Of a stretch of DNA of 64,000 nt, positions 44,564 through 46,258 are shown piece after piece. The DNA is from an uncultured Gemmatimonadales bacterium (GTDB lineage: Bacteria > Gemmatimonadota > Gemmatimonadetes > Gemmatimonadales > GWC2-71-9): NCBI GenBank assembly GCA_963828735.1, contig CAWHFW010000002.1, forward strand, positions 352,001-416,000, written 5' to 3'. A model generated the notes under the pieces. The model searched no databases and had not been told where the DNA came from. It was given only the letters and a program-made list of their open reading frames with translations. Position 1 is the stretch's first letter, and each line of letters starts with the position of its first letter. The position numbers and the translations under genes were made by a program.

Positions 44564-44592
44564 TTGACAACCCTTTCGGCCGTCACTAGTCT
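44564..44592 (+). promoter_or_regulatory. sigma70 promoter of the met operon leader
   Basis: TTGACA-N17-TAGTCT; predicted start about 44599, exactly at the aptamer 5' end. Confidence 0.75.
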
Positions 44593-44598
44593 CACGCT

Positions 44599-44678
44599 CA
44601 CGGCGGCCGACTTAAGGCCACTTGCTCCCGCCGGTGCCTCGGATGGTCCGGGACACGAACAAACAAGCTAAAGCGCCG
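44599..44678 (+). promoter_or_regulatory. SAM-II-type riboswitch aptamer (long-loop variant)
   Basis: P1 CGGCGG/CCGCCG; L1 GACUUAA; GGC pairs with GCC (P2a); UUGC pairs with GC(U)AA (P2b); A-rich linker AACAAACAA; extra hairpin GUGCCUCGGA-UGG-UCCGGGACAC; upstream of metY. Confidence 0.8.
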
Positions 44679-44683
44679 GATGC

Positions 44684-44722
44684 ACGCCCTCCGAGCGCAC
44701 CTGGCCGGGGGGCGTCGTGTTT
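44684..44722 (+). terminator. Terminator-like hairpin 1 (riboswitch expression platform)
   Basis: ACGCCCTCCG/CGGGGGGCGT 10-bp stem followed by CGTGTTT (weak U-tract). Confidence 0.55.
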
Positions 44723-44746
44723 GGCCCCCAGACACACGAGAATTCC

Positions 44747-44845
44747 ATGCGGCCTCGCGCGAGCTGCTGTCGAATGATGCCCTACTGCCCCTGTCCGGGG
44801 TGGACGGCGTCATCGGCGCATGCGCGTGGAAGCGGCGGGGTCTAA
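44747..44845 (+). CDS. Putative Cys/Met-rich attenuator leader peptide, 32 aa: MRPRASCCRMMPYCPCPGWTASSAHARGSGGV
   Basis: Six of codons 7-16 are Cys/Met (TGC TGT CGA ATG ATG CCC TAC TGC CCC TGT); stop lies 20 nt before a terminator; too short for the ORF track. Confidence 0.7.
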   Translation: MRPRASCCRMMPYCPCPGWTASSAHARGSGGV

Positions 44846-44865
44846 CCTCCGCAACCCGGCACCCC

Positions 44866-44908
44866 GAGGCCCGGACCACTCACTGAGCGGTCCGGGCCTC
44901 ATCGTTTT
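44866..44908 (+). terminator. Terminator hairpin 2 (attenuator)
   Basis: GAGGCCCGGACC...GGTCCGGGCCTC perfect 12-bp stem, then ATCGTTTT. Confidence 0.75.
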
Positions 44909-44929
44909 CCTACACTCGAGGAGCGCAGC

Positions 44930-46258
44930 ATGTCTCTCCAGCCCGAAACGCTGGCCATTCACGCCGGGCAGGTGCCGGACCCGGCCACCAACGCGCGCGC
45001 CGTGCCGATCTACGCCACGACGAGCTACGTGTTCAACGACACGCAGCACGCCGCGGACCTCTTCGGCCTCCGAGTGTTCGGCAACATCTACAGCCGCATC
45101 ATGAACCCAACGAGCGACGTGTTCGAGAAGCGCATCGCGGAGCTCGAAGGCGGGATCGCGGCGCTCGCGCTGGCGAGCGGGCAGGCGGCGGAGACGTTGA
45201 CCGTGCTTAATCTCTCCCGCGCGGGCGACAACCTGGTCTCGTCGCAGAACCTGTACGGCGGCACCTACAACCTGTTCGCCTACACGCTCCCCAAGTGGGG
45301 CATCACGACGAAGTTCGTGGACATTCACGACCTGGACCAGGTCCGCGCCGCGATCGACGGCGGCACGCGCCTCCTCTTCGTCGAGACGATCGGGAATCCG
45401 CGGCTCGATGTGCCAGACTTCGAGGCGCTGGCCGAGATCGCGCACGCGGCGGGGATTCCCCTCGTCGTGGACAACACGTTCGGCGCGGCCACCCTCAGCC
45501 GTCCGATCGAGCACGGCGCGGACATCATCATCCATTCGGCGACCAAGTGGATCGGGGGGCACGGGACGGCGATCGGCGGCGTCGTGGTAGACGCGGGCAA
45601 GTTCGACTGGGCCAGTGACAAGGCGCGCGCGCGGTTCCCCGAGTTCAGCTCACCCGACCCGAGCTATCACGGCCTGGTCTATACGGAGGCGTTCGGCCCC
45701 GCCGCATTCATCATCAAGATGCGAGTGCAGCTGCTCCGCGATCTGGGGCCTGCGCTGTCGCCGTTCAGCTCGTTCCTGTTCCTGCAGGGTCTCGAGACGC
45801 TGCCGCTCCGCATCCAGCGACACTCGGCGAGCGCTCTCACCATCGCCCAGTGGCTCGCCAAGGATTCCCGCGTCGAGTGGGTGTCGTATCCCGGCCTCGA
45901 GTCGCATCCCGAGCACCGGAATGCCGCCAGGTACCTGACCGGCGGGTTCGGCGGCGTGCTCACGTTCGGCGTCAAGGGTGGATCGGCGGCAGCAAAGTCG
46001 CTCATCGACCGGGTGAAGCTCTTCTCGCTCCTGGCCAACGTGGGCGACGCGAAGTCGCTCATCATCCACCCCGCGTCGACCACCCACGAGCAGCTGACGC
46101 CGGAGCAGCAGCGTGCTACCGGCACGACACCCGAGCTGGTCCGCCTGTCGGTCGGGCTCGAGGATGTGCGAGACCTCATCGACGACCTGAATCAGGCGCT
46201 GGGTGAGGCGGCGGCTACGGACGACCGCCGGGCCGTGGCGACGAGCGCCGCCGGATGA
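44930..46258 (+). CDS. metY: O-acetylhomoserine sulfhydrylase (aminocarboxypropyltransferase)
   Basis: [56 protein letters not shown]. Confidence 0.95.

Follow-up and report, generated by a model that had tools for sequence, protein, structure and literature searches.

The leader upstream of metY raises the question of whether a riboswitch and a leader-peptide attenuator can act in series on one RNA. Tandem riboswitches are the textbook case of RNA-only logic, and leader peptides that of ribosome-based sensing. The initial annotation of the window (the whole 64,000-nt stretch of DNA analysed) had listed a promoter, a SAM-II-like pseudoknot, a first hairpin, a 32-codon ORF, a second hairpin and the metY ribosome binding site (RBS), and all of them were found at 44564-44932 on the + strand when the sequence was read directly. 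Comparison with related genomes makes it likely that the metY leader consists of two independent transcription attenuators in series, a SAM-II-type riboswitch and then a leader-peptide attenuator.

Promoter, metY and downstream genes

The locus opens with a promoter-like element and continues into a probable operon:

44564..44592, + strand, promoter-like element (TTGACA 44564-69, TAGTCT 44587-92, 17-nt spacer); transcription start expected at about 44599-44601
44918..46258, + strand, RBS GAGGAG (44918-23) and metY from ATG 44930, O-acetylhomoserine/O-acetylserine (OAH/OAS) sulfhydrylase
46255..48854, + strand, probable remainder of the operon downstream of metY (profile searches)
46255-47325, + strand, aspartate-kinase-like protein, kinase domain only
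47820-48854, + strand, MetX-like hydrolase, with small ORFs between the kinase-like gene and this gene

A consensus promoter scan of the window did not list the element at 44564..44592, because its -10 box corresponds to TATAAT at just 3 of 6 positions. When the printed sequences were compared, TTGAC and a TAnnnT box occurred again, with the same spacing, in the leaders of relatives. The metY product matched PF01053 at 5.8e-139 and scored 656.8 bits against TIGR01326 (cut-off 495), which places it in the bifunctional OAH/OAS sulfhydrylase subfamily and therefore ties it to both Met and Cys. The names given to the genes at 46255..48854 are approximate, since all their NCBIfam scores were under the cut-offs. 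For the 76-aa ORF at 47322-47552, a protein Atlas look-up gave no score above 0.80. Finally, folding of the 341-nt leader gave a z-score of -3.9, and equally stable folds were obtained in 0 of 100 shuffles.

A putative SAM-II-type aptamer with an inserted hairpin

Module 1 (aptamer, antiterminator and terminator) occupies 44601-44724. Its aptamer was delineated by pairing statistics and by alignment to the RF00521 consensus and canonical members:

44601..44677, + strand, SAM-II-type H-pseudoknot aptamer
44601-06 with 44628-33, + strand, P1
44607-21, + strand, L1
44616-18 with 44675-77, + strand, P2a
44622-27 with 44665-71, + strand, P2b
44634..44656, + strand, variable hairpin from the P1 3' strand to the A-rich loop, not in canonical SAM-II
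44657-64, + strand, A-rich loop

The conserved core nucleotides of SAM-II are present, namely the U run of L1, the CUUGC strand, the A-rich loop and the GCUAAAG tail. In the aptamer alignment (20 pairs), 93.1% of cells were paired, compared with at most 50.8% in slid controls, and 8 pairs displayed two-sided changes. Compensatory changes were seen at two pairs of P2b (one sequence each) and one pair of P1, while P2a was invariant and hence uninformative on covariation; the support for these three helices comes from few sequences because the core is almost invariant. The inserted hairpin displayed two-sided changes at all five of its pairs, varied in length from 13 to 24 nt and had many different stem sequences among the matches.

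The initial annotation had counted the lack of a covariance-model hit against its own reading, and formally this is what was found: the SAM-II models RF00521 and RF01726 gave no match on the window, either at the gathering threshold or at E<=10. Similarly, none of the Rfam SAM families fell on the element in the loci of 24 relatives, and a genome-wide search with RF00521 left 44601-44677 unmatched, though two other loci scored 42.5 and 41.7 bits. Canonical SAM-II elements of the same genome are located upstream of metH and upstream of a gene for a PLP enzyme. We attribute the missing Rfam match to the extra hairpin of the 3' loop, owing to which the variant lacks the compact, helix-free 3' loop of SAM-II. 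A covariance model, R1, was built from the variant; canonical SAM-II RNAs (those above the RF00521 cut-off) aligned to it at 19-22 bits, with a deletion of 17-21 nt exactly where the insert sits. The pseudoknot core, the covariation and the R1 alignment thus uphold the proposed SAM-II-like aptamer, on which the Rfam models are silent. From this comparison of architectures, 44601-44677 is best described as a SAM-II-type aptamer with an added hairpin, and is predicted to bind SAM.

Strong R1 matches (50-89 bits) were obtained in 17 of the 151 genomes of the order, all from one family, the next best match scoring 26 bits. The exact aptamer pattern matched 38 of the 401 genomes sampled from the phylum, and the backwards control none; such tallies are lower bounds, and the window itself fails the pattern through its A at 44665. 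In the 50 genomes carrying it, the variant was always located upstream of Met-pathway genes (metY, MetX-like or aspartokinase-like).

The window's aptamer is off consensus at two columns with 90% or higher conservation, owing to a U to C change in the U run of L1 and a G to A change that costs the last P2b pair. It might therefore be a decaying, SAM-blind copy, leaving only the Cys attenuator at work in this genome while the tandem works in relatives. The lost P2b pair (pair 31-70, unpaired in 5 sequences) and a weak U run behind terminator 1 point in the same direction as the two off-consensus columns. However, no damage is seen in the rest of the core, in P1 and P2a, in the insert hairpin or in the antiterminator/terminator pair. 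Moreover, pair 31-70 is also missing in all four aligned g16 rows, where the element is retained, and the exact pattern was found in 15 of 15 g16 genomes. In addition, a contig from the RNA library of a different study matches 44616-44779 exactly, which rules out misassembly as the source of the A at 44665. We consider decay of the aptamer unlikely and keep to two attenuators in series.

Terminator 1 and its antiterminator

Downstream of the pseudoknot, two overlapping pairings complete module 1:

44685..44724, + strand, terminator 1, stem 44685-93 with 44706-14, then TCGTGTTTGG (folds, pairing statistics)
44673..44698, + strand, antiterminator 1, aptamer tail GCGCCGGA (44673-80) with TCCGAGCGC (44690-98), overlapping the 5' arm of terminator 1

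Terminator 1 was 84.5% paired, with two-sided changes at 4 pairs, a figure reached by 0 of 500 shuffles. The U run behind it is poor in the subclade of the window. Antiterminator 1, whose register in the window was set by eye, was 72.2% paired (at most 51.3% in slid controls), with weak covariation. A strict terminator scan of the window listed neither of the two + strand terminators (1 or 2).

A cysteine-rich leader ORF

Module 2 (leader ORF and attenuator with helices 1:2, 2:3 and 3:4) extends over 44747-44910 and begins with a short reading frame:

44747..44845, + strand, leader ORF, 32 codons and a stop, MRPRASCCRMMPYCPCPGWTASSAHARGSGGV; frame and Cys cluster kept in relatives

This ORF contains four Cys codons (44765-70, 44786-88, 44792-94) and two internal Met codons (44774-79). 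Its Shine-Dalgarno sequence is weak (GAGA); purine runs resembling a Shine-Dalgarno sequence were recognized by eye at the leader ORFs of relatives. The frame and a cluster of at least 3 Cys were found in 28 of the 29 leaders compared, with 3-6 Cys in the peptide, and the one genome without a clean leader ORF was L052. Over 28 ORFs (887 codons), Cys represented 13.8% of leader codons against 0.95% in the long frames of the genome, and internal Met 6.0% against 1.0%. The ORF had been described as rich in both residues: Cys is the consistent codon signal of the leader, whereas Met is enriched without positional conservation.

Short ATG ORFs with at least 4 Cys in 12 codons are rare in this genome (45 of 9617, 0.47%). 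Seven of the 45 precede a terminator-like hairpin; of these seven, the ORF at 44747 alone has a stem more stable than -24 kcal/mol and a gene that starts within 30 nt. The genome search for other Cys-rich short ORFs with downstream terminators returned no second convincing attenuator.

Predicted attenuator helices and terminator 2

Three alternative helices link the ORF to metY:

44764..44825, + strand, helix 1:2 (anti-antiterminator), Cys/Met-codon strand with region 2 (folds, pairing statistics)
44801..44878, + strand, antiterminator 2, region 2 (44801-18) with region 3 (44863-78), region 3 comprising the 5' arm of terminator 2 plus flanking nucleotides
44866..44910, + strand, terminator 2, stem 44866-44900 (-30.9 kcal/mol), then ATCGTTTTCC (fold, covariation)

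The helices were taken from the window's own fold, a choice that favours them, and the relatives compared are kin, not independent samples; the following percentages are to be read accordingly. Helix 1:2 was 70.6% paired (at most 50.1% in slid controls) and its covariation did not exceed that of shuffles (77/500). Antiterminator 2 was 84.5% paired, with two-sided changes at 6 pairs (0/500 shuffles). Terminator 2 was 84.6% paired, with a covariation of 0.212 versus 0.116 (0/500 shuffles). For antiterminator 2 and terminator 2, covariation spans genera and a second family of differing sequence. When the Cys codons were masked in thermodynamic folding, at least 17 nt of region 3 paired upstream in 28 of 29 leaders, as against 7 of 29 unmasked; in these 7 folds, antiterminator 2 was already formed without masking.

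Could terminator 2 be controlled by a structured RNA alone, such as another riboswitch or a leader bound by a protein, with the frame and the Cys codons as by-products? Region 2 and the peptide part 'GWT..S.A' owe their nucleotide-level conservation to base pairing, and C/U changes at Cys third positions face G and are structure-neutral too. TGY triplets are also common in frame +1 (122 in frame, 77 in frame +1 and 14 in the third), and their counts by themselves do not identify the frame that is read. The ribosome-independent explanation nevertheless accounts poorly for a start codon 0-8 codons upstream of the first Cys, followed by an open frame, in 28 of 29 leaders, or for 53 in-frame ATG triplets when the two alternative frames have 6 and 5 of them, along with 28 and 9 stops. 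Frame-preserving indels of 3 nt are visible among the aligned leaders, and the Cys cluster survives in a second family of different nucleotide sequence. Moreover, no Rfam family matched, and classical attenuators have the same arrangement of three helices. A ribosome-independent module 2 is, in our view, quite improbable.

The conserved short peptide with its 3-6 Cys could also suggest a functional micropeptide, for example metal-binding or redox-active, co-transcribed with metY, the hairpins then being ordinary intercistronic structures or terminators. However, outside the Cys cluster the peptide varies freely between genera save where the RNA pairs, and a plain upstream gene needs no strong terminator and covarying antiterminator before metY. 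We give this explanation very little credence, and leader-peptide attenuation is retained for module 2.

Contigs from RNA libraries of soil metatranscriptomes cover much of the leader. Two of them, of 166 nt (the one identical to 44616-44779) and 188 nt, span terminator 1, and one of 352 nt (44773-45125) spans terminator 2. Since such contigs are blind to ends, strand and level, and may stem from DNA, they were not counted toward read-through. Positions 44601-44611 were uncovered by these contigs, a gap that carries no meaning.

Tandem arrangement across genomes

Of the 50 genomes in which the aptamer variant was found, 43 had the full tandem before metY, one had an irregular ORF and six had the aptamer alone. 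In 43 of 50 genomes, the aptamer is thus followed by a terminator, the Cys ORF, a second terminator and metY, in agreement with the order proposed initially. The six aptamer-only loci lie upstream of metY, metX or an aspartokinase-like gene. Conversely, the Cys leader was found without the aptamer in two genomes of a sister family. The existence of both kinds of locus indicates that the modules are autonomous and have been stacked. Each module comes with an expression platform of its own and is found by itself elsewhere, as expected of a two-input tandem gate.

Proposed regulation

In the scheme proposed here, the architectures of both modules, their covariation and their separate occurrence come from comparison; SAM binding, ORF translation, stalling and logic are inferred. 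With SAM bound, the 3' tail of the aptamer would be locked in the pseudoknot and terminator 1 would form. Without SAM, the tail would instead capture the loop and 5' arm of terminator 1, allowing transcription to continue. At the second site, smooth passage of a ribosome over the 32-codon ORF would let region 1 re-pair with region 2, so that terminator 2 forms. A stall at Cys (possibly Met) codons would put the ribosome over region 1, so that region 2 could capture the terminator-2 5' arm. A complete metY mRNA would require read-through at both sites, and output would be highest when SAM and the charging of Cys (or Met) tRNA are both low. The leader would then behave as a NOR-like gate, a prediction whose sole ground is the presence of two sensor-controlled terminators in series.

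On balance, we lean towards a natural two-input gate made of a SAM riboswitch and a Cys (perhaps Met) leader peptide, assembled in one family from modules that still circulate separately. Such a gate would let one operon balance the methyl-cycle end product against the supply of sulfur amino acids.

Comparison with known systems

Each ingredient has published counterparts: attenuators based on Cys codons, SAM-II variants that carry inserts, and tandem gates made of riboswitches. The aptamer shares with SAM-II (RF00521, SAM_alpha; RF01726, 'SAM-II long loops') the H-type pseudoknot, the GAUUU run of L1, the A-rich 3' loop, the CUUGC strand paired with the GCUAAAG tail, a terminator as expression platform and a Met-gene context. 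It differs from it by a GC-rich P1 and the covarying hairpin of 13-24 nt, by staying under both Rfam models even at E<=10, and by its restriction, in the samples searched, to one family and one sister-family genome. SAM-II elements with long inserts are on record from Bacteroidetes and marine sequences, according to the accessible part of Weinberg 2010 (PMC2864571).

As described in the available portions of the reports, Cys-codon leaders include uORFC-8-2 before cysS in Rhodobacterales, which ends in an intrinsic terminator (PMC8632094), the polycysteine sORFs of mycobacteria, which act on translation (bioRxiv 10.1101/834739), and the Cys leaders of Actinobacteria reported in 2005, for which no terminator was found (PMC1262725). 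Common to these and to module 2 are a short upstream ORF, clustered Cys codons and the expected or shown sensing of Cys-tRNA charging via ribosome stalling. In contrast, the present leader precedes metY, is enriched in Met codons as well and has a riboswitch in front; the likeness compared here is one of description.

Tandem riboswitch gates include, in the sections of the surveys available, a ppGpp riboswitch with a T-box(Leu), SAM-II/SAM-V and SAM-II doublets (PMC9481103, PMC10043782). They share with the metY leader independent sensors, each with its own expression platform, on one leader, and the ppGpp/T-box case also couples a metabolite sensor to a tRNA-charging sensor. Here, however, the second sensor would be a translated leader peptide and not an aptamer or T-box; the terms 'leader peptide', 'uORF' and 'attenuat' are absent from the main text of one survey (PMC9481103).

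According to the available parts of the sources, the Salmonella mgtA leader combines a Mg2+ riboswitch with the proline-codon ORF mgtL (PMC6460261), and mgtCBR has tandem attenuators (PMC3641672). The mgtA leader likewise joins RNA-based sensing to a short ORF whose translation speed reports on an amino acid, but its ORF lies inside the alternative helices of the riboswitch, giving one decision point, whereas the metY leader has two modules with their own terminators. In Sinorhizobium meliloti, the metA leader carries a SAM-II riboswitch and, further downstream but still ahead of the coding sequence, another Rho-independent terminator; the authors could assign no sensor to it, and the portion available describes no Cys-rich ORF (PMC9373788). 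The lack of precedent stated in the initial annotation was thus too strong in view of mgtA. In its narrower form it holds for the texts covered: word searches of the literature returned neither a riboswitch followed by a leader-peptide attenuator nor a serial SAM riboswitch and Cys/Met leader peptide.

If the proposed reading is true, this would be the first riboswitch/leader-peptide series described, and metY would gain its first example of a Cys/Met leader peptide. The conserved order of riboswitch and then leader peptide would present both mechanisms as interchangeable building blocks, and evolution appears to have combined the two kinds of sensor by simple stacking. It would also add a terminator-type Cys attenuator for a lineage beyond Actinobacteria and Alphaproteobacteria. 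Moreover, one inserted hairpin would suffice to hide a whole SAM-II clade from covariance-model annotation. Finally, nature supplies a ready series for studying how two attenuators multiply: some loci have both modules, some have a single one, and in some the aptamer precedes a different gene.

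Organization of the metY leader

Comparison of the metY leader with its relatives indicates that it is a real, conserved two-module attenuator and that both of its modules are variants of kinds already known. All the leader elements listed in the initial annotation were found in place in the window sequence. They are given here on the + strand.

44564-44569 and 44587-44592, promoter-like boxes TTGACA and TAGTCT, 17-nt spacing
44601-44677, pseudoknot-capable segment
44685-44693 pairing with 44706-44714, hairpin 1 (terminator 1), then TCGTGTTTGG
44747-44845, leader ORF of 32 codons, peptide MRPRASCCRMMPYCPCPGWTASSAHARGSGGV
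44866-44900, hairpin 2 (terminator 2) of 35 nt, -30.9 kcal/mol, then ATCGTTTTCC
44918-44923, GAGGAG, with the metY ATG at 44930

Module 1 comprises the aptamer and terminator 1, and module 2 the leader ORF and terminator 2. The leader fold has a z-score of -3.9 and beats 100 of 100 shuffles. A consensus promoter/terminator scan of the window did not list the promoter or the two + strand terminators. The gene at 44930 matches PF01053 (5.8e-139) and the OAH/OAS sulfhydrylase subfamily TIGR01326 (656.8 bits, cut-off 495). It is followed by an aspartate-kinase-like protein with the kinase domain only and by a MetX-like hydrolase, both named from scores below the NCBIfam cut-offs. On the other side, a divergent DUF520 gene (43988-44491, - strand) begins 73 nt upstream of the metY -35 box, with a SpoIID-domain gene beyond it. 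The window also carries a tRNA gene (4506-4576, + strand; RF00005, 63.5 bits).

A SAM-II-type aptamer with an inserted hairpin

The pseudoknot was initially annotated as SAM-II. No Rfam SAM family reached its gathering score across the window or E<=10 on 44480-44960, and none matched the metY element in the loci of 12 and 13 relatives (two scans); RF01726, the Rfam model of SAM-II long loops, gave no score on the metY element in the relatives' loci scanned. Elsewhere in the genome, two loci match RF00521 (Rfam SAM-II) above the cut-off (42.5 and 41.7 bits). SAM-II is thus in use in this organism, yet the models miss the metY element.

The metY element, the two canonical aptamers of the genome and the RF00521 consensus share P1, the GAUUU run, the CUUGC strand, the A-rich loop and the GCUAAAG tail, in identical order. 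The conserved core reads CGGCGG-(N)GAUUUAGGGCCACUUGCUC-CCGCCG, then a variable hairpin, then GAACCAAAGAGCUAAAGCGCCGGA. The departure from SAM-II is this hairpin of 13-24 nt, inserted after the 3' strand of P1 and before the A-rich loop. R1, a covariance model built on the variant (from alignment A1, to which the unpublished genome G003 contributes one row), scored canonical SAM-II RNAs at 19-22 bits and aligned them with a deletion of 17-21 nt precisely at the insert. Two of these RNAs pass RF00521 (45.2 and 39.8 bits).

Pairing of the pseudoknot and insert reached 93.1% in 25 published sequences (six genera), versus at most 50.8% with slid partners. Both-side changes were seen in 5/5 pairs of the insert hairpin, and compensatory changes in two pairs of P2b and one of P1, each in one or two sequences. 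Because the core is otherwise invariant, this pairing represents agreement with SAM-II and not independent proof. From its sequence, the metY aptamer is best described as a SAM-II with an insert, predicted to bind SAM. Inserts are already documented for SAM-II long loops from Bacteroidetes and marine sequences (PMC2864571). The window aptamer deviates at two columns that are at least 90% conserved, through a U-to-C change in the U run of loop L1 and a G-to-A change with loss of the last P2b pair.

The canonical SAM-IIs of the genome (L031 and L032) lie at G000:C3:79140-79213 (-) and G000:C5:1246023-1246092 (+), each with an antiterminator and a terminator. One precedes a MetH-like gene with homocysteine S-methyltransferase (S-methyl_trans) and Pterin_bind domains, the other a 429-aa PLP-dependent (PALP) enzyme. 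The sister-family loci L056 and L064 also carry canonical SAM-IIs (45.2 and 39.8 bits), whose tail, AGCUAAAGCGCCGG, is identical to that of the metY variant; the gene after the L056 aptamer matches methylenetetrahydrofolate reductase (PF02219).

Expression platform of module 1

Terminator 1 was 84.5% paired, with both-side changes in 4 pairs, a number reached by 0/500 shuffles. For several relatives, the tail and terminator region folds at minimum energy into an alternative helix, in which the aptamer tail GCUAAAGCGCC-GGA pairs with UCC-GCGCUUU in the loop and 5' arm of terminator 1. Across the alignment this antiterminator was 72.2% paired and covaried weakly; slid partners gave at most 51.3%. 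In the window it pairs GCGCCGGA (44673-44680) with UCCGAGCGC (44690-44698), in a register set by eye. This tail/terminator arrangement is the usual OFF-switch design. The U run of the window terminator 1 is poor.

The leader ORF and alternative helices of module 2

An ATG-started ORF of 17-45 codons with 3-6 Cys was found in 28 of 29 leaders, the exception being L052, which has no clean frame; in L043 a GTG start is probable (judged by eye). In the 28 ORFs (887 codons), Cys codons make up 13.8% and internal Met codons 6.0%, versus 0.95% and 1.0% in the long frames of the genome. ATG triplets (53 in frame versus 6 and 5 in the two alternative frames) are more decisive for frame identification than TGY triplets (122 versus 77 and 14); stop codons number 0 in frame versus 28 and 9. 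Differences in length of the Cys region are in frame. In the window's own genome, 45 of 9617 short ATG ORFs have at least 4 Cys in 12 codons, and a terminator-like hairpin follows 7 of these 45; the metY leader ORF alone has both a stem under -24 kcal/mol and a gene start within 30 nt. Its Shine-Dalgarno sequence in the window is weak. At G000:C6:75476-75559 (+), a 27-codon ORF rich in Cys (10 codons), MAEASCGCTKGCCDTGCCCGTSACKCG, precedes a GC hairpin and T run, and a 183-aa gene lies 74 nt later; it could encode a metallothionein-like peptide or be another leader.

The attenuator strands (regions 1-4) were compared in 27 published sequences, using helices derived from the window's own folds, which biases the test in their favour. 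Terminator 2 (3:4) was 84.6% paired, versus at most 52.7% when slid (covariation 0.212 versus 0.116; 0/500 shuffles). Antiterminator 2 (2:3) was 84.5% paired, versus at most 54.5%, with 6 pairs changed on both sides (0/500 shuffles). Helix 1:2, between the Cys-codon strand and region 2, was 70.6% paired, versus at most 50.1%, with covariation not above shuffles (77/500). In the sister family, the three strands differ in sequence and keep the same complementarity. Ribosome-like masking was modeled on transcripts cut before the terminator 3' arm, with a mask that covered the start and everything up to 12 nt beyond a Cys codon. At least 17 nt of region 3 paired upstream in 28/29 masked versus 7/29 unmasked leaders (26/27 versus 7/27 without two unpublished rows).

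Distribution and modularity

A MetY search of 41 related genomes returned 12 same-genus orthologues (85-91% identity) and 2 in another family (~65%). Upstream of the orthologues, the promoter boxes, the near-invariant core and the first hairpin with its T run are all kept; after them come a Cys-rich ORF, conserved in frame, and another strong hairpin with its own T run. When 151 genomes of the order were searched with R1, the 17 strong matches (50-89 bits) all fell within the window's family, and the best match after these scored 26 bits. In a 401-genome sample of the phylum, an exact pattern of the aptamer matched 38 (backwards control, 0): 37/166 in the family, 1/93 in a sister family and 0/142 elsewhere. 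These tallies take in the unpublished G101 and are lower bounds, because the pattern misses the window itself.

The initially proposed order of aptamer, ORF and terminator is kept in relatives. Indeed, the full tandem (aptamer, terminator, Cys ORF, terminator, metY) was found in 43 of 50 aptamer-variant genomes, from genera g1, g16, g17, g36 and g74 (41/48 without two unpublished genomes). L052 (1/50) has the tandem layout with an irregular ORF. In the other 6, the aptamer and terminator 1 directly precede a gene: metY (L095, L098), a MetX-like gene (L094, L096; only L094 was domain-scanned, PF00561) or an aspartokinase-like gene (L044, L099). Conversely, the sister-family loci L014 and L015 have promoter, Cys ORF, terminator and metY, and the aptamer is absent. 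Each module is thus autonomous, and stacking the two gives the tandem. In L014 and L015 the ORF begins a few bases past the predicted -10 box and may be leaderless or nearly so, which recalls the leaderless polycysteine sORFs of mycobacteria.

In genus g17 (L045, L046), ~110 extra bases separate terminator 2 from the metY RBS, versus ~30 in other genera. A MetY paralogue (~52% identity) lies at G000:C4:272651-273929 (-), matched as two overlapping pieces, and in G012:C519, G001:C214 and G022:C103. The single in-frame TGA that it carries in the four genomes may reflect a frameshift, a pseudogene or stop-codon recoding.

Proposed logic and published comparisons

The comparison upholds two terminators in series; the NOR-like gate initially proposed is an inference from this layout. 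With each terminator controlled by a sensor, read-through would be required at both, and the behavior would be NOR-like or, more realistically, multiplicative, with SAM and Cys-tRNA charging as presumed inputs. Met starvation might also relieve the second block through the Met codons, a weaker suggestion because these are enriched but not positionally conserved. Membership of MetY in the bifunctional OAH/OAS sulfhydrylase subfamily would provide a rationale for the Cys signal.

Cys-codon leader peptides are already known (PMC1262725, bioRxiv 10.1101/834739, PMC8632094): those of mycobacteria exert translational control (bioRxiv 10.1101/834739), and uORFC-8-2 precedes cysS, with a terminator (PMC8632094). 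The initial annotation knew of no precedent for the tandem. No report of a riboswitch and leader-peptide attenuator in series was found in the open-access text searched, and the arrangement appears undescribed. The initial statement is tempered by the Salmonella mgtA leader, which joins a Mg2+ riboswitch to the proline-codon ORF mgtL (PMC6460261). Tandem ORF attenuators are described for mgtCBR (PMC3641672). In S. meliloti metA, too, the SAM-II riboswitch is followed by a second terminator, there unexplained (PMC9373788). The main text of a survey of tandem riboswitch gates (PMC9481103) lists SAM-II doublets, SAM-II/SAM-V and ppGpp/T-box(Leu); the terms 'leader peptide', 'uORF' and 'attenuat' are absent from that main text. 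A Zixibacteria contig (L072) carries two SAM-II-like aptamers on one strand, ~60 nt apart (557-619 and 681-744; R1, 11.7 and 22.2 bits), probably one of the doublets surveyed there.
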